36,428 bases of DNA from contig JBFMFJ010000001.1 of assembly GCA_040752235.1 (NCBI GenBank), positions 1 to 36,428 on the forward strand. The letters are read 5' to 3'. The stretch is from Candidatus Zixiibacteriota bacterium (lineage in GTDB: Bacteria > Zixibacteria > MSB-5A5 > GN15 > PGXB01). Each line of letters begins with the position of its first letter. Within the stretch, counting starts at the first letter, position 1. Below are positions 9,629-36,157 of the stretch, piece by piece. The notes under the pieces were generated by a model. The model was not told the DNA's origin. It saw only the letters and a program-made list of their open reading frames with translations, and searched no databases. Both the position numbers and the translations under genes were made by a program.

Positions 9629-9650
<22 letters not shown>

Positions 9651-10915
9651 AGTTTAAGCCCCTGAAGTTCAACAACTTCGGGGGTTGTGTTTTTCGGGGA
9701 ATTACCTTCAGAAACCGGATTTTCTAACAGTTTTCTAACAAAATTTCCGAAAACTGTTTCATCTAATCTCCGAGCTGCATCATTTTCAAGGTTTGGCATT
9801 AAATGTCCATACCGATCAAGAGTCGTCTTGGCCGACGCATGACCGAGCTGCGATTGTATGAACTTAATGTTCTCACCCTGAGAAATCAGAAGTGATGCAT
9901 ACGTGTGTCGGAGGTCGTGGAAGCGTATCCGGCGTAAGCCTGCTCTGTCCAGTGCGGGAAGAAATTCCCTCTTGATCAGGTTATCGGGATCAAGAGACAA
10001 GCCGTTCTCATTGGAAAAAACCAAGTCCATCTCGGATGCTCTTCCAATGAGGCGGTGCCGTTCAAGCGACTGACGAAGTACCGGGGACATTACTATCCTG
10101 CGGATCGAATTCTTCGTTTTCGGTTTAATGAATTCTCCTCGAAAGATAGAACGTCTAACCGATATTTCGCCGGAATTCCAATCAATATCACCCCATTGCA
10201 GTGCGAGAAGCTCACCGCGCCTCATGCCGGTCATTACCGCCGTCAGAAAAAACGCATAATGATTCGGGTTGACGTGTTCCAGGAATAGCCGGACTTCCTC
10301 CGAAGTGAGAAAATCCATTTCTTCCTGTTCGACGCGCGGACGCTTTACATACAATGAAGGGTCACGTTTGAGGTAACCCCAGATTACGGCGTGCTTGAAC
10401 ATTTCCTTAAAAGGAACCAGCATGTTGACGACAGACTTCGGACTTTGTTTCTCCTTCGTAATCTTATCGGATACGAATTTCTGAATGTCCGAAGTCGAAA
10501 TCCGGTGCAGGAACTGCTTTCCAAAGCAAGGATTCAGGTGAAGCCTCACAATGGCTTTGTAGCTGATATAAGTAGAGCTTTTCACGGAAACCTTGGCATA
10601 ATCGGATAACCATTTGGCGGCAAACTCCTCAAAGAGTATTTTCTCGCACTCCTGATAAGTGCCGCTGTTTATCTGATTCATCCGCTTTGCCAGAAGTTTC
10701 TCTGCGGCTCTCTTGCTGCTACCGGCTCGTTCCCACTTCTGAGTTCCTCCGTCCCGATAAACCGCATACCAAGTATCAGAGCGTAGCACAACGCTTCCTT
10801 TTGCCAATTCGTTCTCACCTCCTTTCCGGTTGGCACGATAAATAAGTTTAATTCCATCCGGCATGACCGATACCGACGGCCTGCCTATGGGTATGTGATA
10901 AATGGTCGAGAGCAT
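9629..10915 (-). CDS. int: Tyrosine recombinase / phage-type integrase
   Basis: C-terminal catalytic blocks FHDLRHTYASLLISQG and LGHASAKTTLDRYGHL, plus an N-terminal SAM-like domain. The true start may be the internal MPDGIKL at 10864. The last 22 nt of the ORF overlap the tRNA. Confidence 0.9.
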
Positions 10916-19948: not shown

Positions 19949-21619
19949 TTGAATCGATATATGATATCGTATTTCGTTTACGCCAGAAAATCCACGGAAT
20001 CCGGGGACAGACAAGCGCTGTCGATTGAAGCTCAAATAAATGAGCTGACATCGCTGGCACAAAAAGAGCAACTCAAGATAGCAAAGATATTCACCGAATC
20101 GCAATCTGCCAAGAATTCCGACCGACCGGTGTTCGGTAGTATGGTCAATGAACTGAAGCGAAACCGAATCCGGGGTATTCTCTGTTGGAAACTAGATAGA
20201 CTGACCAGAAATCTATCGGACGCGGCAAGGATATCGGACCTCCTGGAAAAAGGCGTTATCGACGAAATTCGAACACCCATGCAGATTTACAGAAACAACA
20301 GCATTGACCGGCTCATGAGCGGCATTGACTTTTTATTCGCGCGAAAATTCATAGATGACCTTTCGGAGAACGTGAAACGAGGGCTTAGACTCAAGGTGCA
20401 ACAAGGCTGGATGCCTGGAAGAGCGCCTATCGGATACTTAAGCGATCAGGCGGATAAGGGTTTTCGAAAAATCATCCCCGATCCCGAACGTTTTCCTCTC
20501 ATTCGCAAAATGTGGGATATGATGCTGAGCTGTAATTACTCCGTACCGCAAATATTGAGTATTGCCAATAAAGAATGGGGATTCAAGACCAGAAGAACAA
20601 AAAGACATGGGGCGGCGCCTTTATATAAAAGCACGCTATACAAGGTATTTACCGATCCCTTCTATTACGGCTGCTTTGTCTATCAGGGGGAGCTTCATCA
20701 AGGAAAACACAAGCCAATGGTTACCTTCGAGGAATTTGAACAAGTTCAGCAACTGCTCGGAACCAATAATAAATCCAAGCCTCAGGAACATACTTTCGAT
20801 TTTACCGGTCTTTTTCGATGCGGGCAATGCAATTCCCTAATAACCGCGGAGCGAAAATATAAGCTTCTCAGATCGACCAATGTGAAAAAGTCCTATATCT
20901 ATTATCATTGCACGCACGGGAAAAATCCAGACTGTCAGCAAGGATCGGTGACTGACATTAATTTGCTGGATCAAATTGACGGATATTTATCGAAAATAGC
21001 CATTCCACGGGAGCACCTGGAATGGATATTTAAATACTATGATGCTGTGTCTTCCCGAGAATTAAACAAAACTGAAAATGAAAAGCGGTCTATAAAAAAA
21101 GAATTGCAGTCCATCGACAAAAAGTTACAGAACCTGATGAATCTTAAAATAGCCCCGGAGAATGAAGATAACCAGTTGCTATCCGATGAAGAATACCTTA
21201 AACAAAAAAACAAACTTATACAGGAAAAACAGAGCCTAGACTACTCGCTGAACAATTACGATAAAGCAAACATGGAAATGCTTTCTCTTACCAAAGAGAC
21301 ATTTGAATTGTCTGCCTACGCCCGAATCTGGCTTTGTAAAGGGGACAAACAGCGGAAACAGACCATCATACGAAAGATATTCTCGAACCGGAAAATAGTG
21401 GATAAAACTGTGCTAATGAAAGCCAAAAGACCTTTTGAGTTAATTTCTGATATCCAATTGCCGTCGAATGGAAAAATAAAAACTTTCGAACCGACAAAAT
21501 ATGGCTTAGATAACACACAATCCGGCATATATGATGACGGATTATGTGCTCTCCTCCGGCAACTGGACGACATTAGAACTGAAATAGTGAAAATGGCCAA
21601 GGAAAACGGTCAAATATAA
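19949..21619 (+). CDS. Large serine recombinase (resolvase domain, recombinase domain, zinc-ribbon and coiled-coil)
   Basis: N-terminal YARKSTESGDRQALSIEAQ (catalytic Ser), LCWKLDRLTRN, Cys clusters CGQC...CTHG...C, and a C-terminal coiled-coil. An alternative start is MISYF at 19961. Confidence 0.85.
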   Translation: MNRYMISYFVYARKSTESGDRQALSIEAQINELTSLAQKEQLKIAKIFTESQSAKNSDRPVFGSMVNELKRNRIRGILCWKLDRLTRNLSDAARISDLLEKGVIDEIRTPMQIYRNNSIDRLMSGIDFLFARKFIDDLSENVKRGLRLKVQQGWMPGRAPIGYLSDQADKGFRKIIPDPERFPLIRKMWDMMLSCNYSVPQILSIANKEWGFKTRRTKRHGAAPLYKSTLYKVFTDPFYYGCFVYQGELHQGKHKPMVTFEEFEQVQQLLGTNNKSKPQEHTFDFTGLFRCGQCNSLITAERKYKLLRSTNVKKSYIYYHCTHGKNPDCQQGSVTDINLLDQIDGYLSKIAIPREHLEWIFKYYDAVSSRELNKTENEKRSIKKELQSIDKKLQNLMNLKIAPENEDNQLLSDEEYLKQKNKLIQEKQSLDYSLNNYDKANMEMLSLTKETFELSAYARIWLCKGDKQRKQTIIRKIFSNRKIVDKTVLMKAKRPFELISDIQLPSNGKIKTFEPTKYGLDNTQSGIYDDGLCALLRQLDDIRTEIVKMAKENGQI

Positions 21620-21797: not shown

Positions 21798-24659
21798 CTA
21801 TTTCAGCAAGAGCATCTTTTTTGTTTCTGTAACCTCGGCAGTTTGAATTCTGTAGAAATACACGCCGGATGCGTACTTTGCGGCATCCCAGGTGATCGTA
21901 TGTTCACCGGCCGGTTGGTCGGCATCCATGAGCGTTTCCACCTTTTGCCCAAGAATGTTGTACACATCGAGCCGGACATGCGTAGCCTCCGGCACGGAGA
22001 ACGAAATCACGGTTGTGGGATTGAACGGGTTCGGGTAATTCCGGGACAGAGAGAAGCCAGACGGGAGGATTTGCTCCTCGGAGTAGGCAACCTTCGGGGA
22101 ACCGCCAGGACCGTTGAAATGGCCTGCGACCATCGCAATTTCCTTCAATGGATTGTAGTCGGTCCGCATCCACCAGCCGTCGTACCCGCCGGACATCGCG
22201 AAAGAAGAGCCGGTACTCCGGAATACATGGAGCCGAACGCCCGTGGAGTCATACATCATGCACACGTCCGGAATATTATCTCCGGTAAAATCACCAGATG
22301 CCACGTGCAGAATTTTATCTGCTTCGTAGTTTTCAGGCGGATTCCACCAGATCTGGTAGTAGGCGAAGGACGAACCTGTTGAACGGAAGAAATGCAGCCG
22401 GGTCAAATGCCCCTCACCGCCGGAGCGGTAGCCCATGTAATACGCCAGGGTAACATCGTCAATGCCGTCATTGTTGAAGTCGTCGGATACTGCGCCGTGC
22501 ACTCGGGCAGCTTCATAGCTGTCAGGGGAGCTCCACCACCCGGCATAGCCGTCCATGTCGAACGAGGAGCCCGTAGAGAGAAACATATGGAGCCGGGTCA
22601 GATACCCTTCTCCGGTGTCGCGATACCCCATGTAGTACACGATGCAGATATCGTCCGTGCCGTCATTGTCGTAATCCCCGGAGGTAAAGCCGTAGATATG
22701 TTCTCGGTAGTAGCTCATGATGCCGTCAGAATCCCACCAGGTCTGCTTGGTGAACGAGGAGCTTCCGTTGGACAGGAACACGTGCAGGAGGAGCCTGCTC
22801 GAAGTTTCTGCGTAGAGAACGGCGACGTCTTCGTAGCTGTCGCTGTTGAAATACCCGGAAACCATGCCCACAACCTTGGCTGGATCGTAACCCGAGGTGC
22901 TGAGCCACCAGCCGGTGCTGCCGGTCCAGTCAAAATCCTCGCCGGTCGAGAGGAACACGTGCAGACGGCGTGATGCGGAGTAGTTATACATATTAACCAC
23001 ATCATCATTCCCATCGCCATTAACGTCGGCCGAAACCGTTGCAAGTACATCGCTGATATTGTAGTTCGTGCTCATCCACCAGCCGTACTTGCCCTGGAAG
23101 TCGAAAGAGCCGCCATTAGACAGGCACATGTGAATCCTGCTCGAAGTGCCGCCGTAATCGTACCAGGTTGCAATGTCGGCGTAATGGTCGCCGGAAGGCC
23201 CGCCAGCAGAACCGACCTGATTGTTCCAGATTTCCGTACCCGCGCGGTTGTACACCCGCGTGATGCCATTGTCATCGACCATCCGGCCATACTTGAAGTA
23301 CTGGGTGCCGCTGAAACGGTCCGATGTCGGAGCACCGAGCGTATCAGGCATCCATACGTACTCACTCTTCGCGGGATTCCAGACCTTACCGAACGAGAAC
23401 GCATTGTAGAAGCCGCCATACACATAGTAAGCCAGGTTGTTACCAGCATGACCCCATCCTTCAACATCCACCCATGACTCTGGGTCATAGACGATAATGC
23501 CTTCGCCGTTCGTACCAAAGTCGTAGCGCTGAGCGTGATAGCTTGTACCTTGCCAGTTAATGTGAATCTTTTGTAGCGCACAACCGACGCCAACTCGTGC
23601 ACCATTTCTCTCATAGCAGTCTGCAATGAGGTAGGACCATTGCCGGTTCCAGCCGTCATCGGTCCAGCCGGGAGCGTAGGTAGGTAAATCGTTTACCGGA
23701 CCATAACCTTCGATAGTTATTTCATACGGCTGACGACCTTGGATATATTCGAGATACCCGAGCTGGAAATCCTGCCTGGCATGGCCTGCGCCAAGTTCAT
23801 ACTCGTTGGTAACGGGCATTCCGAAACATCCCGAAGGGCCATCATTTTCCGACCAGCCGTGTCCATAACCATCAGCCCAGAAACCGGTGCGAACGGTATA
23901 TGCCTGACGGGTGCCGCCCAGGGCATCATATACGATTCCGCTCCGGCTGAAAGTGCCTCCTGAATAGTCTCGGATATAGCAAGTATTGCTGGTATTGTAT
24001 TCCTCATCATATAGGTTATCAGGGGCCCAGGTTTCGTAGCCACCATACCAGTGGATATCTTGGAGCACTGTACCGAAGTTGGTACTACCGCCGTTGGCCG
24101 TGTATTCCAGGTCGATGATGTTGGAATTTTGAGAAGTGCACTGCTGATCTTCGACGGGTACCCCGACATCGTCGAATGAAGTCTGGATACTTGACCCGTT
24201 AAGTGTACTTTGAATCTGAAAGTGCACATGATAACCGGTTGAATTGCCGGTAGTCCCACAAGTTCCAATGACCTGGCCCTGTTGGATAAGCTCTCCTCTT
24301 CTGACAAATACCTGCTCCAAGTGACACATACGCGCATAGGTCCCATCCGACAATGCCAGAATTACATAATTACCCCATCCACTTGTACAACTTCCACATT
24401 GGAAGTAGCATTCTGCCACAGTAGCGTCCATCGGTGCGACAAGCGGATGGTTTATGTCGGACGAACCAAGTATATTGAAGTCCCAGGCATAAGCCATGCC
24501 GTACTCCGACCAATGGTCGTAGTCGCCATAGTGTGGAGCGTTGTTCCCTTGTGAACAAGTCCATTGCTCGCCACTCATCATTGGCATTTTGATTCCTGCA
24601 TTAACAGCCAGTGCTGTCAGCTGAGACATCAAGAACACTAATAGCATCCGTAGCTTCAT
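21798..24659 (-). CDS. Secreted M23 metallopeptidase fused to FG-GAP/VCBS-like repeats and a T9SS (Por) C-terminal sorting domain
   Basis: Start moved to MKLRMLLVFLMSQLTALAVNA (ATG 24659, aggag RBS upstream). M23 block GTCGTTGNSTGYHVHFQI. Five or more DxNxDGxDD repeats (DVNGDGNDDV, GDYDNDGTDDI, DDFNNDGIDDV and others). C-terminus NYPNPFNPTTVISFSVPE...ASGVYFYRIQ...KKMLLLK. Confidence 0.85.
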   Translation of the reverse strand: MKLRMLLVFLMSQLTALAVNAGIKMPMMSGEQWTCSQGNNAPHYGDYDHWSEYGMAYAWDFNILGSSDINHPLVAPMDATVAECYFQCGSCTSGWGNYVILALSDGTYARMCHLEQVFVRRGELIQQGQVIGTCGTTGNSTGYHVHFQIQSTLNGSSIQTSFDDVGVPVEDQQCTSQNSNIIDLEYTANGGSTNFGTVLQDIHWYGGYETWAPDNLYDEEYNTSNTCYIRDYSGGTFSRSGIVYDALGGTRQAYTVRTGFWADGYGHGWSENDGPSGCFGMPVTNEYELGAGHARQDFQLGYLEYIQGRQPYEITIEGYGPVNDLPTYAPGWTDDGWNRQWSYLIADCYERNGARVGVGCALQKIHINWQGTSYHAQRYDFGTNGEGIIVYDPESWVDVEGWGHAGNNLAYYVYGGFYNAFSFGKVWNPAKSEYVWMPDTLGAPTSDRFSGTQYFKYGRMVDDNGITRVYNRAGTEIWNNQVGSAGGPSGDHYADIATWYDYGGTSSRIHMCLSNGGSFDFQGKYGWWMSTNYNISDVLATVSADVNGDGNDDVVNMYNYSASRRLHVFLSTGEDFDWTGSTGWWLSTSGYDPAKVVGMVSGYFNSDSYEDVAVLYAETSSRLLLHVFLSNGSSSFTKQTWWDSDGIMSYYREHIYGFTSGDYDNDGTDDICIVYYMGYRDTGEGYLTRLHMFLSTGSSFDMDGYAGWWSSPDSYEAARVHGAVSDDFNNDGIDDVTLAYYMGYRSGGEGHLTRLHFFRSTGSSFAYYQIWWNPPENYEADKILHVASGDFTGDNIPDVCMMYDSTGVRLHVFRSTGSSFAMSGGYDGWWMRTDYNPLKEIAMVAGHFNGPGGSPKVAYSEEQILPSGFSLSRNYPNPFNPTTVISFSVPEATHVRLDVYNILGQKVETLMDADQPAGEHTITWDAAKYASGVYFYRIQTAEVTETKKMLLLK

Positions 24660-24729
24660 ATGAAGCTCCTTTCTCCTTTGGACAGCCTCTATTCCTGTCC
24701 TGTTTGATGTCAAAGAGCATTATTACTCT

Positions 24730-25546: not shown

Positions 25547-26332
25547 TTATGTCAATCCGGTAAGGATTCTGCCGGAGACATCCTTGATGCGCTGGATTGA
25601 GTGAATCAGCATTTCTTTGTCGCCTTTGTAAAGCTGGATATAGTCCGAAAAGGCGGTGTTGGTATCTAGGCCGATAAACTGGCAGACGACATAGGCGACG
25701 GCTTCAGCTTCGGTTTCCTTCTGCGTCTTCGATAGCTTTTCGCCGGAGTGATGCAGAAACTCATGAGCCAGTTCGTGGACTTTCACACCGAAATCTTGAG
25801 CCGGAGACAAACCGGAACGGATAACGATCTTGCCGCCGGTCGAACAGCCGTCCGCGGGCAAGGTATCCGAATACTCAAGAGTAATACCGTTAGCGGAAAT
25901 AAAATTACCGAGCATTTCCAGATAACGGGAGGGATCGCCTTGCACCCGGGCGAATTCGGGCAGTTCGGCTCCGTCGGTTTGGCTTACGTCAAAAACGTAA
26001 ACGGCCTTGAAACCGTTAACTTCGGTGACATTGGAACGGTTGTCATCATCTTCAACCGTTTCTTTTTTGTAAACCAATGGAGCGATGATAACGATGCCGT
26101 TTTCGCCTTTTTTGACGAACCGGCCAAGCTTTTTCCAGGTGTGAAATCCGGCGACATGAGTGGCACTCGGCTTCTGAAGAGCGATGAGCAGGATATTGCC
26201 GAAGCTGTAGCGATGGAATCTGCTCATCGTCTGAAGGTACTTCTTCAGTTCATCACTCTGACCAGCTTCGAGAGACTCGGTCAATGAAGTGAGAGCGTTT
26301 TCAATCAGTTGTTTTGCTTTGTTGTTCTTCAT
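25547..26332 (-). CDS. ardC: ArdC-like anti-restriction protein (ssDNA-binding N-domain plus HExxH metalloprotease domain)
   Basis: N-terminus FHRYSFGNILLIALQKPSATHVAGFHTWKKLGRFVKKGENGIVIIAP (ArdC-N pattern). C-terminal VHELAHEFLHH zinc-protease motif. aaggag RBS upstream. Confidence 0.7.
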   Translation of the reverse strand: MKNNKAKQLIENALTSLTESLEAGQSDELKKYLQTMSRFHRYSFGNILLIALQKPSATHVAGFHTWKKLGRFVKKGENGIVIIAPLVYKKETVEDDDNRSNVTEVNGFKAVYVFDVSQTDGAELPEFARVQGDPSRYLEMLGNFISANGITLEYSDTLPADGCSTGGKIVIRSGLSPAQDFGVKVHELAHEFLHHSGEKLSKTQKETEAEAVAYVVCQFIGLDTNTAFSDYIQLYKGDKEMLIHSIQRIKDVSGRILTGLT

Positions 26333-26522: not shown

Positions 26523-27551
26523 TTAAATACCGGCTTCTGCAATATGACAATACAGATTATACGATTGGATATAGCTGAACTCCGGAGGCAAAGCATTACC
26601 TATTAGCAAAGATATTGATGTTTTTGTGATAGTTTCCGGAAACTTGTAATCGCGCGGAAACGTCTGTAGCAGTGCTGCTTCTCTCGCAGTGATGGCTCTA
26701 TCTTCTACCGGATGCAAGAATCTTCCTTTGGACGGATTCAGGCATCCTCCGGTGATCGTGGACGAATAGTCGTCCCAGGAAAGACGGCCATATATATCGT
26801 TAAAGCCAATGTTGTCTTTGTCATGACAAGCCAATGTGAACTCGGGAATGTCCTTTCGACTTCCACCGTTTTTTGGAACAGCTTTTATTCGTCGCATTAC
26901 ATCCGTTGAATGAGTGGCGACAATTCGATGAATTGGATCGTTAGTGTCCGCAATTGACTCCAAACCGCCGATTGCGTCTCTCACCGTTACTTTCTCTTCG
27001 ACGGGCTCAGGAAACTCAAGTTTACCGAGCAGCGAGCCGATCAATACCAGACGTTTGCGTCGCTGCGGAACACCGTAATCTTGAATATTGAGAATTTCCA
27101 CTTGCGGCTTGTACCCCAAGTTGTCAAGCTCCTTCACAACTCGCTTAAACAGGTAATAATTGACCAAACCCGGAACATTCTCCATCATAATTGTCAGCGG
27201 CTTGAGTCCCTTAACAAATCGCAAGTATTCCAGAACTAGACTGTTACGTGTATCTCTTGTACTTCGCTTTCGGTTCAATCTTCGGACGGAGGAAAATCCC
27301 TGGCACGGTGGGCAACCAGCAAGCAGGTGGAGCGTTTTTCCATTTATCACAGATTTGACTTCAGATATTTTGATATCACGAATATCCCTGTCAAAAACAT
27401 GTGTTTTGGGATGATTAAGTCTGTAAGTTTTTATGGAATCCGAATCGTTATCTAAGGCCGCCACAACCGAAAAACCGGCCTTTCTCATTCCTTCTGAAAG
27501 ACCACCACATCCGGAGAATAAATCCATGGCGTAGTATTTGCTCATACTCAT
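26523..27551 (-). CDS. DNA (cytosine-5)-methyltransferase (second Dcm of the operon)
   Basis: Motifs I DLFSGCGGLSEG, IV GCPPCQGFS, VI MENVPGL, VIII QRRKRLVLIG, X GNALPP. ATGA start/stop overlap with the upstream gene (27548-27551). Confidence 0.9.
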   Translation of the reverse strand: MSMSKYYAMDLFSGCGGLSEGMRKAGFSVVAALDNDSDSIKTYRLNHPKTHVFDRDIRDIKISEVKSVINGKTLHLLAGCPPCQGFSSVRRLNRKRSTRDTRNSLVLEYLRFVKGLKPLTIMMENVPGLVNYYLFKRVVKELDNLGYKPQVEILNIQDYGVPQRRKRLVLIGSLLGKLEFPEPVEEKVTVRDAIGGLESIADTNDPIHRIVATHSTDVMRRIKAVPKNGGSRKDIPEFTLACHDKDNIGFNDIYGRLSWDDYSSTITGGCLNPSKGRFLHPVEDRAITAREAALLQTFPRDYKFPETITKTSISLLIGNALPPEFSYIQSYNLYCHIAEAGI

Positions 27552-28954
27552 CCCGTAGTGGAAAAAAAGTTATTTAACATCGTATCAAAAAGTTCCTTCA
27601 TTGAGGACGGATAATCCGGTACCCCGTAACCTCCCAACACCGAGAAGATGTGTTGCATTACCGGGGTCAGGAATGGTTCCGATAGTGAGCACATTTTCAC
27701 AGTACCCGTCCACGACGCATATTTGAGTGGCGTGTTCTTTCTTTCTTTAAGAGTCATGTCCTTGACGATCTGAGGAATGGGAATACTTAGCGTCTTGATT
27801 TCTTTAGGCACAACCACAAAATTCTTGTAATCCGAGCCGAGTTTCAGAAACGGCAAAATGAACGGACCTTCCGGTAAGCCATCTATATTGCCCGTTAGAT
27901 GCTTTATCCGATGTTGTTTTAGGTTGTCATCATTGACGCATATGGTAAGCATCTCTTTCAGTTTCGAGTTCGACACCTCAAGCGCATTAAGCGGAAGTAC
28001 ATTTATCAGACCCAGATTCTTATGCCAAAATCTTGCCAAATCACAGTCGGCCGATACAACCATGAAGTGTTTACTTTCAATTTCGACGATATCGCCTCTT
28101 CTGACCATTCCGTCAAAGTCGCCAATTGCTGATTCACACGGTAAGTATAACCGATAAGACCATATCCGTTTTAGTAATTCCTTATCGACGGCTGCGCCCT
28201 GTTGCCCTTGATTCGGCACGTCAAGATTAGGCAATTCGGACGTCGTCAGACCCGACCTGAATCTCTCTGCGACAAAATCCACCAGGTCTCTTTTGTCGCC
28301 GGAATCTTCCATGTTGAGATAGTTCTTTAGTTCATTCAAGGTAGCCCTGCCTAGGTCGGACAAAACACCATCCATTACTTGCATGGTCATCCTTCGAAGC
28401 CGTCCGGCAAATCGGAATGAGAAATTGCCGTCATATAGTTCTTTGGCCTTGGTAATGAGAGCATTGGACTGTTCTTCCTCATTCTTTGTCTTGTCCAGAA
28501 AATGCAGCCTTTTCTCGAATTCCTTAAACTCGGGCTTACCCAACACCGCGGTTATCTCGTCTTGCTTATCGGCACCGGAGAAAATGAAAATCAAACAAAA
28601 GGTGCTCTTAAGAATCTGGAGTAATATATCTTCCGAATTGGTACCTGCTCCAAGTCCAACTCCGGGATAGTCCCAATCATACACTATGATGTCAAACCGG
28701 ATGAGCCCGTCTTTTAGACTATTTATCAATAAGGACGGATTGGTTAAACCGTAGACCTCCCACTTATGACTTACTTGGTCTTCTTCTTTCTCATCTAATA
28801 GCGTTTTGATCAGATTCTTAACAACTTCGTCCGTCCACTGTTCTTTGGCAATGAGATAAGCCAAGTTTGAAGAGTTAAGGAGGTCCGTATCCCTCATATG
28901 TTCTGCAGCGGAAGCTGGAATTTTGTCGTCTATTACGCATATTGAATACTGCAT
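27548..28954 (-). CDS. Receiver (REC)-like N-terminal domain fused to unassigned ~300-aa C-terminal region; putative effector partner of the upstream kinase-like protein
   Basis: 468-aa ORF. D9-D10 (ICVIDDK), D93 (IIVYDWDYPG, compare CheY VISDWNMPN), S126 (FIFSGADK) and K155 (FLDKT) reproduce the receiver acid-pocket/phospho-acceptor/Ser-Thr/Lys layout, with an insertion between beta1 and beta3. The C-terminal part (RRGDIVEIESKHFMVVSADCDLARF...) is not recognised. There is a 1-nt gap after the upstream stop. Confidence 0.55.
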   Translation of the reverse strand: MQYSICVIDDKIPASAAEHMRDTDLLNSSNLAYLIAKEQWTDEVVKNLIKTLLDEKEEDQVSHKWEVYGLTNPSLLINSLKDGLIRFDIIVYDWDYPGVGLGAGTNSEDILLQILKSTFCLIFIFSGADKQDEITAVLGKPEFKEFEKRLHFLDKTKNEEEQSNALITKAKELYDGNFSFRFAGRLRRMTMQVMDGVLSDLGRATLNELKNYLNMEDSGDKRDLVDFVAERFRSGLTTSELPNLDVPNQGQQGAAVDKELLKRIWSYRLYLPCESAIGDFDGMVRRGDIVEIESKHFMVVSADCDLARFWHKNLGLINVLPLNALEVSNSKLKEMLTICVNDDNLKQHRIKHLTGNIDGLPEGPFILPFLKLGSDYKNFVVVPKEIKTLSIPIPQIVKDMTLKERKNTPLKYASWTGTVKMCSLSEPFLTPVMQHIFSVLGGYGVPDYPSSMKELFDTMLNNFFSTTG

Positions 28955-28955
28955 A

Positions 28956-31706
28956 CTATTTGTTCCCTTCCGTCTCGCGACTGTCAGGGACGCGGCCGAA
29001 ATCCAACGTAAACTGTGCGCCCGCCATATTTTTGATACGATCGCGCTGACTGGTCAGATATATATCCCCTTTCATTTGCTGCATGTAATAGCGGCAAATA
29101 TACAGTCCAAGGCCGCTGGGCGGGATCCGCATGCTATATCCGGGCTGAAACAGGTATGGCATAATCACGTCGCCGATGCCCGGACCTGAATCGGCCACCG
29201 TGATCATACGGTTGGACTCATCTATTTCAATAACTATTGATCTGTCCTCTATTGTGACGGTTTTCAACCAGTACCAGCTATTGTCGATGAGGTTTGAAAA
29301 TATTTGGATAACCGCTCCATACCTTCCATAAACCGAAAAATCTTGGTTTCCGCCAATCTTTATTTTTATAGATGCCTTTTCGAGCTTGGAGCGATTGATA
29401 TCAATCGTATATCGAATTGCCTTAAGCACACCGAATTGTGTCGGTGATTCGGTTTTTATGGCACGAACGGGACCCAAACGCCTTAATTCCGATTGAAGAG
29501 AGGCTGACGCCTTTTTGAGTTCGTCTAGTTTTTCTTTACTGGGTTGTTTTGCCTTGAGAAGTGTTGTCACTCCGTAGTAAAAGTTCGCGGCAATTTTGGC
29601 GATTTCATGCACCGATACGGCAACCGCCATACCGTATCCGGCCTGTTCGGTAAGCAAGTCCTGGGATTCTTGCAAGAGCTTAATACTCTTTTGAAGGTTT
29701 CTGAGTGAGGTAGAGAGGCTTACCAATCTGTCTTCACGCTTCTCCACTCCGCCCATTGAACCGAGTATATTGTATGGGTCTTTGTCAATCGGATAGTTAT
29801 CCTTAATGCCGTCTATAACTTTTGCGCCCTGCTTGGCATAATCGGCTAACAATTTGGGGTCTCGCACTACACTTTCAGTGAGCTTGCCATACTCCTCGCG
29901 TTTTCCAATAAACCTCACCTCAATAATGGAAGAGATAATGCTGCGAACCAATTTTGTGAGGTCGCTAAACGCCCTGTTGCCGATAAGGCCTTCGCGATCG
30001 GTCTTGTCAACAAGATGAATATTTTGAGTTTGGTCGACTTCGAGATTACCAATCATGTTATAATAGGACATTCGAAAGCCTTGCTTGATGTGAGTTTTGC
30101 TAAGGTCAAGCCAGTCCGTCTCCGCACCCCACTCGGCGGGAAAAATGTTAAGGCCGTCTCTGAATATCGAGATGCCTCCAAATTTCGTCAAGTAGTCTAT
30201 GAAGTTCTTTCCGTCGGGACCGGAGACGGTAACCCACGGAGTCCTCCTGTACCAAACGTCAATATGTAAAAAGAACTGCCCGCAAGCAGGTGTCCGTAGC
30301 GAGGCTCCTTTTCCCAAATCAGCCCAGTAATCCGCCTCAAATTTTCGGAGATCGACATTTTTTTCCTTAAAAGTCTCTCCCGGCATCGGAACCGAGCGTG
30401 GCGGATTGAATTTGAGTTCGTATTGTAGTGCACCCCTTTCATCCACCAATCCATCGAATGAGAAGGTCGCCGGAAACTGATCGACCGGGCTGTCTGTCGG
30501 AAGTTCTCCCAGTTGGGGGCACTCCAAAAATGCATTGAATCCAGTTGTCAGCGATTGTTTACCAGGGGACGGATGTGGCGAATTGAGACCTATCACCGAC
30601 CGATGCAATTCCTCAATTGTGTCCTTGTCCCAATAAAATCCTTCGCGGCCACCGTAAATTACCAATTGCGTACCGGAGTTTGTCGACCCGTAGTCACGGG
30701 ACGGTGATTGTCTGGTCAAAGCAATGCCTACTTTTTCCAGATCCGTAACTTCATTTGGTCTGGTATTGAAGTCATCCCAATCCACTTCAAGAATATATTC
30801 ATAATCCAGATCACTGACTTTGGTTTTTAGCATTAAATGCTTACCAAGTCTGTGTGCGGCGAATCGGCCGACTCCCTTTTCTCCGAGAGGAATTCGACCT
30901 CCGCGTTCCTTTTTAAGCTCTGAAATCAGTCGGTCAAACGTACCCAGCTTGCCGGACTTGGCCGCCTTTTCACGCTCATGTTTGATTTGCTCTTTTACGA
31001 CGGTTTTGATTGTTGACGCGGGACGAAGCCACCCATGTTCGATAACTTCACGCGTCATTCCCGAACCATCATCCTCAATTATGATTACAGGGCCCGGCAG
31101 TTTGGGATATTCCAGTTCGGATTTGTCCAAGCTTCCAAGAGAAGGCACATTTTCGATCCGTATTCGACAATAAGAGGCACCGGCATCGTAGGCGTTCTTA
31201 ATCAACTCAAGTATGCCAACTTTTTCTGAACCGATAAGTTGCTCTCCCAAGACCCGCACTAAATGAGCATCAGCCCGAAAGTTAAGGATTACCTTCCCAT
31301 CCAAGCAGATTTCCTCAAACAAACCCGCTGGGATTTGTCTCACGGCATTCTGTGAATTGTAGTACTTGGATTTTACTTCTCGGATATTCCCCTCCAAGTC
31401 TTTCAGCGGGACAGGTTCCGCAAAGGCTTTGTAATCATCAACTTCCACAAAATAATGACCATGCTCTCGTTTGTCTTCTTTCGGAGCTTGTTTGATCTTG
31501 CCACACCCAAAATAGACGCCTTGCCCGCCCGATCTGGTAGGCTCATAGTAAATGAACTCTACCGGTAGATTTTTGAATTGTCCCAAGTACTTCTTTGGAA
31601 AGTGATACGCACGACCGATGAAGTCGTTGTATCCACTTTCTTCCCTAGACTGTACCAGAACTAAATAGTTTTCTTTCATAAATTTCTCTTGTTTATTTCT
31701 CTTCAT
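28956..31706 (-). CDS. Dual-GHKL protein: unassigned N-domain, MORC/MutL/Hsp90-type ATPase module, and a C-terminal histidine-kinase core (DHp-like H-box plus CA domain)
   Basis: Start moved to MKRNK (ATG 31706), which forms an ATGA overlap with the glycosylase stop. GHKL-1: ELIKNAYDA, IIEDDGSGM, GEKGVGRF (about 30850-31211). HK core: SVHEIAKIA (His codon 29607-29609), N-box FSNLIDNS, G1 VADSGPGIG, F-box LFQPGYS, G2 SGLGLYICR (about 28994-29654). Confidence 0.75.
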   Translation of the reverse strand: MKRNKQEKFMKENYLVLVQSREESGYNDFIGRAYHFPKKYLGQFKNLPVEFIYYEPTRSGGQGVYFGCGKIKQAPKEDKREHGHYFVEVDDYKAFAEPVPLKDLEGNIREVKSKYYNSQNAVRQIPAGLFEEICLDGKVILNFRADAHLVRVLGEQLIGSEKVGILELIKNAYDAGASYCRIRIENVPSLGSLDKSELEYPKLPGPVIIIEDDGSGMTREVIEHGWLRPASTIKTVVKEQIKHEREKAAKSGKLGTFDRLISELKKERGGRIPLGEKGVGRFAAHRLGKHLMLKTKVSDLDYEYILEVDWDDFNTRPNEVTDLEKVGIALTRQSPSRDYGSTNSGTQLVIYGGREGFYWDKDTIEELHRSVIGLNSPHPSPGKQSLTTGFNAFLECPQLGELPTDSPVDQFPATFSFDGLVDERGALQYELKFNPPRSVPMPGETFKEKNVDLRKFEADYWADLGKGASLRTPACGQFFLHIDVWYRRTPWVTVSGPDGKNFIDYLTKFGGISIFRDGLNIFPAEWGAETDWLDLSKTHIKQGFRMSYYNMIGNLEVDQTQNIHLVDKTDREGLIGNRAFSDLTKLVRSIISSIIEVRFIGKREEYGKLTESVVRDPKLLADYAKQGAKVIDGIKDNYPIDKDPYNILGSMGGVEKREDRLVSLSTSLRNLQKSIKLLQESQDLLTEQAGYGMAVAVSVHEIAKIAANFYYGVTTLLKAKQPSKEKLDELKKASASLQSELRRLGPVRAIKTESPTQFGVLKAIRYTIDINRSKLEKASIKIKIGGNQDFSVYGRYGAVIQIFSNLIDNSWYWLKTVTIEDRSIVIEIDESNRMITVADSGPGIGDVIMPYLFQPGYSMRIPPSGLGLYICRYYMQQMKGDIYLTSQRDRIKNMAGAQFTLDFGRVPDSRETEGNK

Positions 31707-32320
31707 GCCCTTGAGTCCACATATTTCCAAAGGTACCAACAGGCAATCGTGCGAAACGGTCTCCATCTATCGGTGATCAGATCAATTTCGTCTTCTCCAC
31801 AATATTCGTCGCCATAAAGCTTTTTAATCGCATTTATAATTCCTTTGTCGGTAGAAGGAAACACATCAGGACGGTGTAGAACGAACATAAGATACATTTG
31901 TGTCGACCAAGGACCAATCCCTTTCACCTGAGTGAGCACCTCTGTAATACGCTCATCTGACATGTTGGACAATCGCCTTAGCCTGATTGAGCCATCTTCA
32001 ATCTGGTGAGTCAGTTCACGAATCGTCTTGGTCTTAGCTTTAGAAACACCAACATTGAACAAGGCTTCATCATTGATTGTGGAGATTCTATCCGTCGTGA
32101 TCGTTTGGTTACCCATTGCCTCTTTTAGATGCTGGAAAATAGTGGCAGCGGCTTTGCTCGACAACTGCTGCCCGACGATAATACGAACCAGTGACTCAAA
32201 CGAATTGTTGCGCCTGTAGACCTTGTAAGGTTCGACGTCTCGTATGATTGTCGAGAGAATCCGGTCTGAATTCTTCAAATGTCGAATCGCGTCAATAACT
32301 AATTTGCGCTCTTTCGTCAT
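31703..32320 (-). CDS. HhH-GPD superfamily DNA glycosylase (AlkA / 3-methyladenine glycosylase II-like)
   Basis: IVGQQLSSKAAATIF and VKGIGPWSTQMYLMFVLHRPDVFPSTDKGI (helix-hairpin-helix, GPD region with catalytic Asp). Start taken at MTKERK (32320), which forms an ATGA overlap with the vsr stop. The ORF track start is 32353. Confidence 0.8.
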   Translation of the reverse strand: MTKERKLVIDAIRHLKNSDRILSTIIRDVEPYKVYRRNNSFESLVRIIVGQQLSSKAAATIFQHLKEAMGNQTITTDRISTINDEALFNVGVSKAKTKTIRELTHQIEDGSIRLRRLSNMSDERITEVLTQVKGIGPWSTQMYLMFVLHRPDVFPSTDKGIINAIKKLYGDEYCGEDEIDLITDRWRPFRTIACWYLWKYVDSRA

Positions 32321-32733
32321 CCTTGTTTCTCTCTGGTTCTTCTGGTCTTCCAAACTGCCATGATTTGCGGAAACCGTTCCCTCAAATCATGCTCCCAATA
32401 TCTAAATATTTTCCAGTCATGGTTTTTGTAATATCGTGATACTTCTCCGTCTCTTCTTCTATTTCGCGATATTTTCTGTTTCCAAAACTCTTTTCTAGTT
32501 TCGGGTAGCTGACAATGTTTCTTGCATCCGTGCCAAAAACAGGAGTCGAGAAATATCACTATCTTGCGAGACTTGAGGAGAATATCCGGTTTGCCGAAGT
32601 AGCCTGAGGGGTTTTTGCGATATCGATATCCGAGTTGCCAAAGAGCTTTGCGAAAATCCACTTCCATTTTGCTGTCGCGATCTCTTATGCGCGACATGAT
32701 CTCGCTTCTCTTAGTTTTACTTACCTTGTCCAT
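32317..32733 (-). CDS. vsr: Very-short-patch repair endonuclease
   Basis: 138-aa ORF with RSEIMSRIRDRDSKMEVDFRKALWQLGYRYRKN, GKPDILLKSRKIVIFLDSCFWHGC and WEHD, which are canonical Vsr blocks. Confidence 0.9.
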   Translation of the reverse strand: MDKVSKTKRSEIMSRIRDRDSKMEVDFRKALWQLGYRYRKNPSGYFGKPDILLKSRKIVIFLDSCFWHGCKKHCQLPETRKEFWKQKISRNRRRDGEVSRYYKNHDWKIFRYWEHDLRERFPQIMAVWKTRRTREKQG

Positions 32734-32736: not shown

Positions 32737-33798
32737 CTAGTTTATCTCCCAATCCTTCGGTAAAGTGATCTTGTCGTATCCCCGGCTCAACATAAACGGT
32801 TTCAATTCCGTACTTGAAGGAAATTCCGCCACGAATTCATTCTCCACATCCCTAAGAAGGGTTTTCCCCAGTTTGTCGCGATACTTTCCGCTCAAACAAA
32901 GATTATACCAATCATCAAGATCGCTCAAAGTTATTATACCCTTGATTCTTTCTCCCCAGCCAACCTGGGCCAGAAGTGACTCAATCGCCTTCTTCTCCGA
33001 ATCCAAACACACTATTACAATTCTGTCGGCGACTATGTCTCCCGCGATATCTTCAACAACCTTGGGGGTCAGAGAAAGATGTTTAACCTGAAAAGCGACG
33101 CCGAAATTCGACCACATATCCAATCCACGATCCGCCGCGTTCGTCACCCCGACACGATAGAGTGCTGCCGGAACCACCGCTTTGGGATTCTCGTCGTCGA
33201 TACCAAGCACCATGCTCAGAAAAGGTCCGAAGTCCCGCAAAATCTCTTTGTCTTCATTCAACACTTCAACGGTAATCTGAGCCTTCAACGCTCTGACAAT
33301 TGAGGTGAACAACGCGTAAACGAAAATCTCATACATTTTGTCCACACTGCGACGCAATCCCGGACTGTTCTGAAAGAGCAAAACGACTTTTTCCAAAGAG
33401 AATTCCGAAGGTGACGAATCGTGAATGTGTTTCTGAATGTCATATACTGAGCCCAGTCGATGCTCAAGACATTTGTAAACGTACGCCTCCACGAACCCCT
33501 TTCCGGCTTTGTTGAGTTGCCCCAAACGCGCGAGAAGTTTTGGTGGCATGGCGTTGGCTTCGAAAACGTTGTCTTGGTATTTTTGGCTTGACGTGCTTTT
33601 TCTTCCCACCAATCGCAACGACACAGCGTCGCGCCACTTCTTGGACACGTTTCTGTATGACTCCAGGTCTTCCAAATCCCAACCGTCTTTTGATCTATGT
33701 TGGAACAAAATCTCCGCAATTTGAATCGGCTTGTATAAGTGCACGCGCGATTTCCTGATAATCGTGTCCAACGCCTTCTTTGCTTTATCAGTGGGCAT
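32737..33798 (-). CDS. Probable type II restriction endonuclease (possibly HaeII-family)
   Basis: 353-aa ORF sandwiched between a Dcm gene (11-nt overlap) and vsr (3-nt gap). The N-terminal RVHLYKPIQIAEIL block resembles what I recall of HaeII-family REases. That subfamily call is from memory and not verified. Confidence 0.55.
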   Translation of the reverse strand: MPTDKAKKALDTIIRKSRVHLYKPIQIAEILFQHRSKDGWDLEDLESYRNVSKKWRDAVSLRLVGRKSTSSQKYQDNVFEANAMPPKLLARLGQLNKAGKGFVEAYVYKCLEHRLGSVYDIQKHIHDSSPSEFSLEKVVLLFQNSPGLRRSVDKMYEIFVYALFTSIVRALKAQITVEVLNEDKEILRDFGPFLSMVLGIDDENPKAVVPAALYRVGVTNAADRGLDMWSNFGVAFQVKHLSLTPKVVEDIAGDIVADRIVIVCLDSEKKAIESLLAQVGWGERIKGIITLSDLDDWYNLCLSGKYRDKLGKTLLRDVENEFVAEFPSSTELKPFMLSRGYDKITLPKDWEIN

Positions 33799-34780
33799 AA
33801 ATTCTCTGTGCTTGTACGGTCGCGAAAATCTCGGCTTGATACATTTCGCTCACCGGTTTTGAATTAAGCGCTTTTACCAACTCCTTCGCCACGGCTTCTA
33901 TCTTGGGAACCACGACGCTGTTCCCCGCTTGCTTGCGAACCTGAGTATCGTTGACCACTATCTTGAATGAGTCGGGGAATCCCTGAAGCCTCAGCATCTC
34001 TCTCGGAGTCAAACGTCGCCTCCCGTTAACGAGCAAATAATTATACGAAGCGTTCGCTCTCAACGCGCATGAAAACGGATGAATGCCTATATTACCGGAT
34101 TTATTCTCGTGCCAAACAGTGGGTTCTTTGGGAATCGTCTTGACTCGTTTCTTCAACTTGTTCTTTATATGGTCGGATATGAAGAACTTCTCACTCACTT
34201 TCTCGTCCGGCTCGAGGATTTCAGCCAAGGATCGCTTCGTGATGCCGCTATTGCCGTTCGGAAATTGGAAAGGCCGATTCTGGTCGAATCCCACTAAAAC
34301 CACCCTTTCCCGTTTCTGGGGCACTCCGAAATCCAGTCCATTGAGAACCTTGTAATGGACGAAATAATCGAGTTTTTCCAGGTGGTCCAAAATCACTTTG
34401 AGAGTTCGCCCTTTGTCGTGCGAGGTCAATTGTCTGACGTTTTCAAGAAGAAACGCTTTTGGGCGTTTCGCTCTTAGAATTCTCTCTATTTCAAAAAACA
34501 ACGTTCCTCTGGTGTCCGCAAAGCCCAAACGTTCACCTATGATACTAAAGGCTTGACAAGGAAATCCGGCGGCTAAAATGTCGTGATCTGGGATATCGTC
34601 GGCATCAACCTTCATGATGTCGCCGACGGGTCGATCTCCGAAATTCGCCTCGTAAGTGTCCTGACAAGACTCGTCCCACTCGCTGGAAAATACGCACGTT
34701 CCACCCGCTCTTTCCAGAGCCAGGCGAATACCACCGATGCCGGCAAAGAGGTCGATGAATGTGTATTTCTTTTTGCTCAT
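33788..34780 (-). CDS. DNA (cytosine-5)-methyltransferase (first gene of the operon)
   Basis: Motifs I DLFAGIGGIRLA, IV GFPCQAFS, VI LENVRQL, VIII QKRERVVLVG, X GNSVVVP. Start taken at MSKKKYTF (ATG 34780, gaaggg upstream) rather than the track's 34813. Confidence 0.9.
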   Translation of the reverse strand: MSKKKYTFIDLFAGIGGIRLALERAGGTCVFSSEWDESCQDTYEANFGDRPVGDIMKVDADDIPDHDILAAGFPCQAFSIIGERLGFADTRGTLFFEIERILRAKRPKAFLLENVRQLTSHDKGRTLKVILDHLEKLDYFVHYKVLNGLDFGVPQKRERVVLVGFDQNRPFQFPNGNSGITKRSLAEILEPDEKVSEKFFISDHIKNKLKKRVKTIPKEPTVWHENKSGNIGIHPFSCALRANASYNYLLVNGRRRLTPREMLRLQGFPDSFKIVVNDTQVRKQAGNSVVVPKIEAVAKELVKALNSKPVSEMYQAEIFATVQAQRIYAH

Positions 34781-34849
34781 GTGGCCCTTCAAAATTACTA
34801 CGCCCAGATACAATTCCAGCGCGTCATAAACAGTTTATCGCATTTATAT

Positions 34850-35038: not shown

Positions 35039-35302
35039 CTAACGAACAATGGCCGGATCAGTCGCTTTTGTAATCAGGCTCTTCCCCATATGCAGATCAT
35101 CCTCCGAGAGTTCGGACTGATAATCCTCAACTATCTTTCTGATCCAAGCAAGCAAGTCAGGGGCCGCGGATATTAGCACAGCATCCTCGGGGCTGAGATT
35201 CCAGTCCTCGTAATCAAGAATGGCGGTGCCGCTGGCATCAGAGAGTACTCCAAAGTCAGTCCATTGCCAGGGACCTTCGGAGTGTTTATTTGTATCTGGC
35301 AT
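35039..35302 (-). CDS. Hypothetical acidic small protein downstream of the AbiEi-like gene
   Basis: 87-aa ORF, 30 nt after the AbiEi-like stop. No nucleotidyltransferase motif. Confidence 0.4.
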   Translation of the reverse strand: MPDTNKHSEGPWQWTDFGVLSDASGTAILDYEDWNLSPEDAVLISAAPDLLAWIRKIVEDYQSELSEDDLHMGKSLITKATDPAIVR

Positions 35303-35332: not shown

Positions 35333-36157
35333 TCAGTGAATTCTCCATTCAGTCAGATTGGCGGGATTCACGTTAACAATCAAATTCCAGTCGCCGTCTC
35401 GCGTGACGGTCGTTTCCTTATAGCCCGGATCCAACAAGGCAAAATTCGGGGTTTTGTGCTTTAAGAGCTCTTTGCGTGTCCTGGGTTTGTTTAATTCCAG
35501 TATATCCAAAAGATAACCGAGGCGCTTGATTACGGCTCCGTTTTTCAGCTTCAGGGAATAGTTCAATAGCTTTTCATGGTCAAGCTCTTTGCGTCCGTTC
35601 CACAGACCTTTGACCACTTCTACGATTTCGCCGCAATAGCGGGGCTGATCCAGACAGTCGATGATGGCTTTTTCCTTGTCGGCGACTGATACCTTCAAGT
35701 TGCCGACCCAGTGGTCTTCATATCCGAAAAACTTGTTATTTTTGAGCTTGATGAATTTTATCATCATCCCCTGCATTTCCAGGGGTAGCTTGGTCTTCTG
35801 CGTGGCGACAAAAATCGTTTTGGACGGTTGTTCGGTCCAACCGTAAAAAGACAGAGCTGTCCAGTAGCTCAGGTAATATGGCTCAATCAACTGCGAAGCG
35901 ATGACAATACCCTCTTCGGTGTACTGCCCTGCCTTCCAAGCTTCCGGCGGTATCAGCAAATATTTGGCCTTCTCGATGCGCTGGATTTTCTTTTTCTCAG
36001 CCAGTCTATGAATGATCTGTGACGCTTCGGTATTACTGATATTGAGCAACTGCGCGGCTTCGGCTACCGTGAACACTCCAAGCCCTTTGCTGCCGATAGT
36101 AGCAATTAGTTCGGTCTCTTTTGGCCCCAGTCCTGTCATTTTTTTTCGATTAACCAT
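35333..36157 (-). CDS. AbiEi-family (type IV TA antitoxin-like) transcriptional regulator
   Basis: 274-aa ORF. N-terminal wHTH VFTVAEAAQLLNISNTEASQIIHRLAEKKKIQRIEKAKYLLIP. Then PYYLSYWTALSFYGWTEQ and a C-terminal KEKAIIDCLDQPRYCGEIVEV, the pattern I associate with AbiEi_3/4 domains. An alternative start is at 36139. Confidence 0.6.
   Translation of the reverse strand: MVNRKKMTGLGPKETELIATIGSKGLGVFTVAEAAQLLNISNTEASQIIHRLAEKKKIQRIEKAKYLLIPPEAWKAGQYTEEGIVIASQLIEPYYLSYWTALSFYGWTEQPSKTIFVATQKTKLPLEMQGMMIKFIKLKNNKFFGYEDHWVGNLKVSVADKEKAIIDCLDQPRYCGEIVEVVKGLWNGRKELDHEKLLNYSLKLKNGAVIKRLGYLLDILELNKPRTRKELLKHKTPNFALLDPGYKETTVTRDGDWNLIVNVNPANLTEWRIH

Follow-up and report, generated by a model that had tools for sequence, protein, structure and literature searches.

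What does a gene pair that resembles a sensor histidine kinase and a response regulator do when it is joined to a DNA methyltransferase gene? The pair in question lies between positions 27548 and 31706, on the minus strand, of a 36,428-nucleotide stretch of DNA from Candidatus Zixiibacteriota bacterium (NCBI GenBank assembly GCA_040752235.1, contig JBFMFJ010000001.1, positions 1 to 36,428), the whole of which is referred to here as the window. It is a divergent member of the Response_reg_2/HEF_HK family, and it belongs to a portable cassette made up of the genes for Vsr, the kinase, the receiver protein and a C5-methyltransferase. The reading we tentatively prefer, and which we consider quite plausible if short of probable, is that the kinase senses cytosine methylation of DNA and, by passing a phosphoryl group from His to Asp, governs an effector resembling a toxin, the purpose being defence or addiction.

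Genes of the window were called from a listing of open reading frames (ORFs) and their translation, and the window proteins were searched against Pfam, PADLOC, PHROGs, NCBIfam and the PDB. The pair, its domains and the genes that adjoin it are as follows.

26523 to 27551, minus strand: cognate C5 cytosine DNA methyltransferase, catalytic PCQ Cys83 (Pfam PF00145, E 1.2e-59)
27548 to 28954, minus strand: receiver-like ORF of 468 amino acids (ORF listing)
27551 to 28183, minus strand: predicted effector domain of the receiver protein, a C-terminal PemK/MazF-like beta-barrel with large insertions (AlphaFold2 and Foldseek)
28184 to 28474, minus strand: four-helix linker (residues 161-238, conserved NFSF motif) and variable spacer (AlphaFold2 secondary structure; conservation)
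28475 to 28954, minus strand: receiver (REC)-like domain of the 468-residue protein, with D9, D10, D93 (codon 28676-28678), S126 and K155
28956 to 31766, minus strand: kinase-like ORF of 936 amino acids (ORF listing)
28956 to 31706, minus strand: sensor kinase-like protein, 916 amino acids from ATG 31706 or 907 from ATG 31679
29004 to 29312, minus strand: histidine-kinase catalytic ATP-binding (CA) domain, with N, G1, F and G2 boxes (PF02518; ThkA 3a0t)
29451 to 29669, minus strand: DHp-like helical hairpin, H-box His720-Glu721 (profile alignment to the YF1/FixL H-box)
29670 to 30758, minus strand: middle region of about 360 amino acids, highly conserved in the homologue alignment, possibly an S5/transducer and DNA-clamp part
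30759 to 31217, minus strand: MORC/MutL-type GHKL ATPase domain (HATPase_c_3), with N-box E187/N191/D194, G1 D232-G-x-G and G2 GEKGVGRF (PF13589)
31293 to 31679, minus strand: N-terminal EVE/YTH/PUA-like domain, predicted modified-base reader (AlphaFold2 and Foldseek)
31703 to 32353, minus strand: HhH-GPD (AlkA/Mag-type) DNA glycosylase (Pfam PF00730, E 1.2e-10; PDB 2h56, a 3-methyladenine glycosidase, E 6e-30)
32317 to 32733, minus strand: Vsr very-short-patch repair endonuclease (Pfam PF03852, E 7.7e-26), usually the first or last gene of the cassette

The kinase probably starts at ATG 31706 or at ATG 31679, either being feasible because the first overlaps the stop of the upstream glycosylase gene as ATGA (31703-31706) while homologues of the kinase begin at the second. 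Its TAG stop (28956-28958) is followed by one spacer base and then by the ATG of the 468-residue ORF at 28954; the methyltransferase gene that follows starts within the stop of this ORF, the two codons again overlapping as ATGA. The three consecutive junctions from glycosylase to kinase, receiver and methyltransferase therefore measure 4, 1 and 4 nucleotides, and the kinase, receiver and methyltransferase genes are translationally coupled. A promoter and terminator scan returned sites compatible with an operon running from 34813 to 26523, yet they were no commoner than in shuffled sequence.

A sequence-only reading of this DNA had placed two separate GHKL modules in the large ORF, the second of them within a classical histidine-kinase core, and all the motifs that it named are found where it put them, far beyond chance. 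The first module is matched by PF13589 (HATPase_c_3) over residues 184-336 of the 936-residue ORF (E 8e-12) and carries the MORC-type motifs ELIKNAYDAG, IEDDGSGM and GEKGVGRF. The second is matched by PF02518 (HATPase_c) over residues 819-921 (E 2.5e-15, 57 bits) and carries the boxes NLIDNS, DSGPGIG, LFQPGYS and GLGLYI; the C-terminal 150 amino acids match solely sensor histidine kinases in NCBIfam and the PDB. Furthermore, a profile of 36 homologues found ThkA (3a0t, E 7e-12) and YF1/FixL (4gcz, E 1.2e-7) in the PDB, and its alignment sets SVHEIAK of the kinase on the H-box AHELNQ of YF1/FixL, so that His720 aligns with the phospho-accepting histidine of FixL/YF1, to which it would correspond. 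His720-Glu721 (codon 29607-29609) is at least 90% conserved in 115 homologues, and across the 36 aligned homologues it is invariant, as are the ATP-binding motifs of both GHKL modules. The classical core, H-box included, is thus upheld by the PF02518 match, the ThkA and YF1 profile matches and the invariant His-Glu pair.

More than 1,400 homologues of the kinase, of about 900 amino acids each, all carry PF13589 and PF02518. The HEF_HK model PF19191 scored 13-15.5 bits on kinase homologues, below its cut-off of 24.1, at the position of the H-box, and gave no match on the window kinase itself. The kinase protein is soluble. Its DHp-CA part (residues 692-923) matches phrog_8137, a phage family of no known function, with an E value of 3.7e-30 in PHROGs; some phages therefore carry a related kinase-like C-terminus. 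The GHKL part has a weak NCBIfam match to the BbrUII/HgiDII restriction enzyme.

The N-terminus of the kinase has no sequence-level match, in Pfam or when the family profile is compared with solved structures. An AlphaFold2 model of its first 129 amino acids (31293-31679; pLDDT 91.4) was compared with the PDB using Foldseek, and the best match was the EVE protein 1zce (Atu2648; E 2e-5, TMq 0.71). There were 34 matches at E<=1e-3, mainly YTH domains; the EVE/PUA-like proteins 1zce, 2gbs, PH1033, VcaM4I and THYN1 were among them, along with one McrB N-terminal domain. The named matches include YTHDF2-m6A, McrB-N (6n0s), the EVE-HNH enzyme VcaM4I (6yex) and THYN1 with 5-methylcytosine (5mC) DNA (5j3e). 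Invariant aromatic and histidine residues (Y, H, F, Y, Y and F) occur in the conserved stretch YNDF..YHFP..YYE..YFGYG. On the strength of this model, the N-terminal domain looks like an EVE/YTH-like reader of modified bases.

The 468-residue ORF does begin one nucleotide past the kinase stop, and the receiver residues previously picked out in it (D9/D10, D93, S126 and K155) are both present and conserved. None of the 41 close or 65 distant relatives departs from D93; D9 is conserved at 96% and D10 at 90%, position 126 is S or T, and a lysine is kept at 155/157. Among full-length homologues, which are 45-57% identical to the window receiver protein, PF19192 (Response_reg_2) matches 35 of the 41 close relatives at E<=0.1 and rises above its cut-off of 27 in P0014, P0098 and P0100 (28.5-29.5 bits), so that membership holds at the level of the family. 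The canonical receiver model PF00072 matches 4 of the 65 distant relatives. Taken alone, the window protein has no match in Pfam (both receiver models included), PADLOC, PHROGs, NCBIfam or the PDB, and a comparison of the protein and its family profile with solved structures likewise gave no relevant match. When the family was aligned with CheY/Spo0F by hhalign, D93 fell on CheY D57 over 95 columns, weakly (pairwise E 3e-4, probability 39%). Judged by its sequence, the N-terminal part of the protein is receiver-like, the putative receiver fold resting on the conserved residues, the Pfam and hhalign matches and published models.

Beyond the receiver-like part, an AlphaFold2 model of residues 160-468 (pLDDT 87.7) shows four helices, then a spacer of variable sequence and finally a beta-barrel. 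Foldseek ranks 1 to 17 in the PDB were all MazF toxins (E 5e-4 to 6e-3, probability 1.0; TM 0.58-0.65 on target length), with CptN at rank 18, and the best matches in the viral library BFVD were annotated "PemK-like protein". R285, G287, D288, C304, G315, P368, F428, G444 and D447 are kept across the wide family, and E426 is likewise listed as conserved in the barrel. The C-terminus of the receiver protein therefore looks like a PemK/MazF-like barrel at the level of a predicted fold. Both of the regions whose identity the sequence-only reading had asked for have in this way gained a candidate identity, EVE/YTH-like for the kinase N-domain and MazF-like for the C-domain of its partner, and in each case as a fold-level prediction. 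The conserved GD...SADCD...H residues were also considered as the signature of a PD-(D/E)xK nuclease or a cysteine protease, a candidate that was rejected for want of profile or fold support.

The setting of the pair was examined in 21 related loci from Patescibacteria, Acidobacteriota, Chloroflexota, Aminicenantes, Verrucomicrobiota, Syntrophales and Thermodesulfovibrionia, in which every ORF was scanned with profiles of the window genes. Kinase, receiver protein and C5-methyltransferase adjoin in nearly all loci with enough DNA and are co-directional in all of them, which together with the junctions described above bears out the proposal that the kinase-like and receiver-like genes form a co-conserved, translationally coupled pair. 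The exceptions are three Chloroflexota loci, in which the methyltransferase has a more divergent sequence and stands apart from the pair, across a gap of 0.7-1.6 kb, and a decayed Tunturiibacter copy (L016), in which the profile scan detected no methyltransferase. In most related loci an orthologue of the methyltransferase gene 26523-27551 (about 470-560 bits) stands directly 3' of the pair and Vsr directly upstream or downstream of the trio. The suggested wiring to a cytosine methyltransferase thus holds, both by the ATGA overlap and by the orthologue beside the pair. In the PDB this methyltransferase is best matched by eukaryotic DNMT1 catalytic domains (E 2.8e-35, 125 bits), ahead of M.HaeIII (94 bits) and M.HhaI (55 bits). 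The combination of a DNMT1-like methyltransferase, a MORC-type ATPase and an EVE-like reader parallels parts of eukaryotic 5mC silencing.

What surrounds the cassette is more variable. A HaeII-type restriction-modification (R-M) system accompanies it in the window and in the Patescibacteria contig L005, which repeats the HaeII R-M plus cassette layout; type I systems are found in L019 and L020, a type III system in L003 and none in L001. The neighbouring R-M type being variable or absent, no nuclease besides Vsr is constant across the cassettes. The unit is therefore a portable cassette of Vsr, kinase, receiver protein and C5-methyltransferase, and to place the pair inside an R-M operon, as was done earlier, is misleading: the Dcm1-HaeII genes that lie upstream are independent, and only the methyltransferase at 26523-27551 belongs to the cassette. 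The cassettes lie on mobile elements beside other defence genes; the contig L019 shares ArdC-N and serine recombinase genes with the window, directly after the cassette. A tblastn search of plasmid and phage collections with the receiver protein gave no match. Three copies are decayed by frameshifts or fragmentation, as expected of genes for defence or toxins, which are costly to keep: a Chloroflexia metagenome-assembled genome has a split receiver gene (L012:9953-11417), and the kinase, receiver and methyltransferase genes are fragmented in the Tunturiibacter lichenicola chromosome (L016:8670-12063) and in a Terriglobia metagenome-assembled genome (L018:1011-3051). An exhaustive profile search of 1.84 billion proteins returned 336 clusters (50% identity) of the receiver protein with matches over positions 1-460, and the architecture of a receiver followed by a 300-residue output region is therefore fixed.

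The pair had been put forward as a candidate undescribed module, and this part of the proposal fails. Bellieny-Rabelo, Pretorius & Moleleki 2021 (Genome Biol Evol 13:evab024, PMC8011034) defined it by computation as "two-component-like", and their work is the origin of the Pfam families PF19192 (Response_reg_2) and PF19191 (HEF_HK). They found the two genes adjacent in 91.6% of 644 regions, described the "group 1" kinase architecture as HATPase_c_3, HEF_HK and HATPase_c, and reported that the pair tends to accompany C5-methyltransferases, Vsr and type II R-M systems and is connected with the paraMORC ATPases described by Iyer et al. 2008. The pair was first spotted in that study as up-regulated in Pectobacterium during potato infection; its receiver-like protein had no other domain, and a regulatory role was suggested. 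Our literature search found no experimental study of the Response_reg_2/HEF_HK pair. The window pair shares with this family a soluble kinase of HATPase_c_3, DHp (His-Glu) and HATPase_c domains, adjacent genes, a receiver-like partner of about 450-500 amino acids with no other Pfam domain, and C5-methyltransferase and Vsr neighbours. It differs in belonging to a divergent branch, mainly from uncultured Patescibacteria, Acidobacteriota and Chloroflexota, and in its additional AlkA-type glycosylase, and the EVE-like and MazF-like assignments are missing from the 2021 paper.

How might these parts work together? With a 5mC writer, a kinase that combines reader and MORC modules, a receiver joined to a putative toxin, and no other constant nuclease, a methylation-guarded switch is the most economical reading. 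The methyltransferase would mark host DNA with 5-methylcytosine, and Vsr would mend the T:G mismatches that result. The soluble kinase would read DNA cytosine modification through the base-flipping pocket of its EVE-like domain while the MORC-type GHKL ATPase clamps the DNA, and the outcome of this reading, whether or not the self mark is there, would set the autophosphorylation of His720. The phosphoryl group would then move from His720 to Asp93 of the receiver protein, and phosphorylation of Asp93 would either free or silence the PemK/MazF-like domain, a presumed toxin and most likely an endoribonuclease, which could arrest the cell or destroy transcripts. The trigger would be DNA without the self mark, such as that of a phage or plasmid, or loss of the cassette itself. 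In this scheme we infer the phosphotransfer, the polarity of the signal, the RNase or toxic activity and the defence or addiction phenotype from the arrangement of predicted domains; reading of 5mC by the EVE-like domain is suggested by its modelled fold, and the receiver protein, as the sequence-only reading had it, may be a phospho-activated effector. A bolder version, which we find rather doubtful, would make the cassette a new class of R-M-like immunity that dispenses with DNA cutting, in which a DNMT1-like writer and an EVE/MORC reader act through a His-Asp relay on a receiver-MazF-like RNase and so arrest the cell. It would then be an abortive-infection or addiction switch under epigenetic guard, and a bacterial module in which writer, reader and MORC components known from eukaryotic 5mC silencing are already joined.

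Several observations weigh against a methylation-guarded switch. It is not obvious how a protein that reads modified bases could sense that a site of a given sequence context is unmethylated, and since the reader alone would be blind to such a site, the MORC clamp would need some mechanism of density-sensing or timing. The EVE assignment of the kinase N-terminus derives entirely from a predicted structure; the middle region (residues 337-700) has no match in Pfam or PDB sequence searches; the H-box lacks the T/N at +4 that serves phosphatase activity in HisKA kinases; and the window proteins score under the PF19192 and PF19191 thresholds. The MazF-like call comes from a predicted structure and Foldseek, with an E value of about 5e-4, a root-mean-square deviation of about 6 Å and large insertions. 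PF02452 (PemK) matched none of 65 receiver-protein relatives, and hhalign of the C-terminal domain against MazF, Kid, EndoA and CcdB was not significant. A protein search with Bacillus subtilis EndoA returned only sequences at least 94% identical to it, and hence no usable MazF profile. Additionally, there is no MazE-like antitoxin gene beside the cassette, nor any small conserved antitoxin gene in the related loci examined.

Other explanations were weighed, the most probable among them being a direct ATP-dependent restriction enzyme. Here the C-terminal domain would be a DNase of a new kind or would poison gyrase as CcdB does, the MORC ATPase would loop or translocate DNA, and unmethylated foreign DNA would be cut or blocked while the cell remains unharmed, much as in classical R-M but with an unusual switch. 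The presence of a cognate methyltransferase and Vsr beside the pair, with no other nuclease constant, would suit such an enzyme, as would the prediction that paraMORC ATPases act with nucleases in R-M systems (PMC2292703), the direct anti-phage activity shown for the GHKL-nuclease fusion VcSduA (paraMORC3; PMC12137116), the fold that MazF has in common with CcdB and the weak NCBIfam link of the GHKL part to BbrUII/HgiDII. However, Pfam, PADLOC and PDB profile searches of the pair returned no signature of a DNase, whether PD-(D/E)xK, HNH, PLD or another, the structural matches are to the RNase toxins MazF and CptN and not to CcdB, and beyond the methyltransferase itself there is no sequence-specific DNA-recognition domain. 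We judge it unlikely. A sensor of modification like those of type IV systems would turn the logic round: the EVE-like domain would detect 5hmC or glucosyl-hmC in phage DNA and switch the toxin on, the methyltransferase being a hitch-hiker or decoy. EVE/PUA-like domains do serve as sensors of modification-dependent enzymes such as VcaM4I (PMC7897488), and an McrB N-terminal domain is among the Foldseek matches. Against this, a methyltransferase is normally lacking in type IV systems, whereas here a 5mC writer is coupled to the pair and kept in nearly all loci, where a toxin triggered by 5mC would be suicidal unless the pocket excludes that base; the idea is very improbable.

The 2021 authors proposed a regulatory role (PMC8011034). 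A two-component system that responds to an intracellular cue, for example nucleoside triphosphate level or the state of the DNA, and that adjusts how strongly adjacent R-M genes are expressed or how active they are, without being an effector in its own right, would account for the enrichment of such genes near the pair and for its up-regulation in Pectobacterium on potato (both PMC8011034). Nonetheless, Pfam, the model and Foldseek revealed no helix-turn-helix or other DNA-binding output domain in the receiver protein, the neighbouring R-M system varies or is absent while the cassette's own methyltransferase is near-constant, and the 300-residue output region is kept as one block in 336 clusters, which together leave this role a small probability. 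An epigenetic or chromosome-maintenance module outside defence, in which the MORC-like ATPase compacts or surveys methylated DNA and relays damage or replication state, has the slightest chance of the readings weighed here. It draws on the parallel between its DNMT1-like methyltransferase, MORC-type ATPase and 5mC-reader-like domain and the parts of eukaryotic 5mC silencing, and on the operon shared with a DNA glycosylase and Vsr. The cassette, however, is distributed patchily and moves horizontally, a mere 336 clusters having come from 1.84 billion proteins; it sits on integrative elements beside R-M, AbiE and ArdC genes; pseudogenised copies exist; and the output fold is toxin-like.

The cassette can be compared with several known systems. 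Detocs (DtcA-DtcB-DtcC; Rousset et al. 2023) shares with it the plan of a relay from a histidine kinase to a receiver-effector, proposed or shown to counter phage, which resembles a two-component system except that its output is an effector domain and not a transcription factor. As had been proposed, the window pair is not Detocs: it has no TPR or PNP domain by Pfam, no stand-alone (buffer) receiver gene among the operon ORFs and no PADLOC match, and it adds EVE-like and MORC-type modules and a cytosine methyltransferase. The PADLOC search, which had been suggested as a check, matched neither protein, and PADLOC, PHROGs and NCBIfam together gave no defence-system match for the pair, returning generic kinase matches besides phrog_8137 and the weak BbrUII/HgiDII hit. 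The MORC and paraMORC GHKL ATPases (Iyer, Abhiman & Aravind 2008, PMC2292703; paraMORC3/Shedu-type VcSduA) share a HATPase_c_3 domain with intact ATP-binding motifs; in the window this domain is extended by a full DHp-CA kinase core, and its partner is a receiver protein instead of a helicase, HNH or PD-(D/E)xK nuclease. With EVE/PUA restriction enzymes such as the EVE-HNH protein VcaM4I, and with McrB, the kinase shares the predicted fold of an N-terminal reader on a defence-type protein. In contrast to these, its reader is fused to an ATPase-kinase and not to a nuclease or GTPase, and is coupled to a methyltransferase; a census of EVE domains (Bell et al. 2020, PMC7641849) lists no kinase or GHKL fusion.

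The predicted effector, for its part, resembles the MazF/PemK/Kid and ToxN/CptN toxins in having a predicted beta-barrel with a C-terminal helix, and RRGDIV of the window protein stands at the same place as RGD[IV] of MazF, in an hhalign register that is not significant. At about 210 amino acids with large insertions, the window domain is larger than MazF-type toxins of about 110, and it has no PF02452 match; nor does the window encode a MazE-type or RNA antitoxin, in place of which the fused receiver would exert control. Two further systems were considered and set aside. MADS, the methylation-associated defence system, has an N6-methyltransferase and eight other genes, and the kinase in its paper is an island boundary marker only. 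A HATPase/REC example from DefensePredictor (2026) was taken as Detocs-like, unconfirmed, going by the abbreviations TPR, HATPase and REC in the figure legend and a purine phosphorylase in the text.

The interest of these observations lies in the family as a whole, known so far by computation, of which the window provides a new divergent member. Pfam has listed the family since 2021 with no function assigned to it, and the predicted EVE-like N-terminus of the kinase and MazF-like C-terminus of the receiver protein are absent from the literature examined. The domain assignments yield predictions for point mutants at H720 of the kinase, D93 of the receiver, the EVE pocket, R285/D288/C304 of the barrel and C83 of the methyltransferase. 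A methylation-guarded switch, if true, would represent a new use of DNA methylation to tell self from non-self, in which a toxin is governed by a reader acting through a phosphorelay and takes the part otherwise played by a nuclease that methylation blocks. Two-component signalling in immunity would thereby gain a second and mechanistically distinct case, beside Detocs, and the switch would provide a bacterial setting for the co-occurrence of MORC ATPase, C5-methyltransferase and 5mC reader that is central to eukaryotic silencing.

The remaining genes suggest that the cassette lies within a larger element. The glycosylase gene between Vsr and the kinase was not found in the related cassettes examined and is an insertion specific to the window; its AlkA-type product may mend alkylation damage that the two methyltransferases produce as a side-product. 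At 32737-34813 the Dcm1-HaeII pair forms a complete, independent type II R-M system and is no more than a neighbour, since the cassette elsewhere adjoins type I, type III or no R-M. From its tRNA-Met gene onward (9574-36428) the window looks like an integrated mobile element, with the following features.

9574 to 9650: tRNA-Met, putative integration site of the mobile element
9629 to 10915: tyrosine integrase, putative mobile element
11164 to 12942: VirD4/TraG-like ATPase, putative mobile element
14559 to 15662: Replic_Relax protein (relaxase), putative mobile element
19949 to 21619: large serine recombinase, putative mobile element
21798 to 24713, minus strand: secreted protein of 971 amino acids with an M23 peptidase, FG-GAP repeats and a type IX secretion C-terminal sorting domain
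25547 to 26332: ArdC-N, putative mobile element
32737 to 33798, minus strand: RE_HaeII restriction enzyme (Pfam RE_HaeII, E 2e-123)
33788 to 34813, minus strand: C5-methyltransferase (Dcm1) of the HaeII system, a separate type II R-M
35333 to 36157, minus strand: AbiEi antitoxin-like gene (PADLOC E 2e-77)

The AbiEi-like gene has no adjoining AbiEii toxin gene, its neighbour being an 87-residue ORF at 35039-35302 on the minus strand with no family match. Finally, the 971-residue secreted protein sits inside the putative mobile element, and nearby genes encode dockerin and Fibrobacter "Fib_succ_major" domains.

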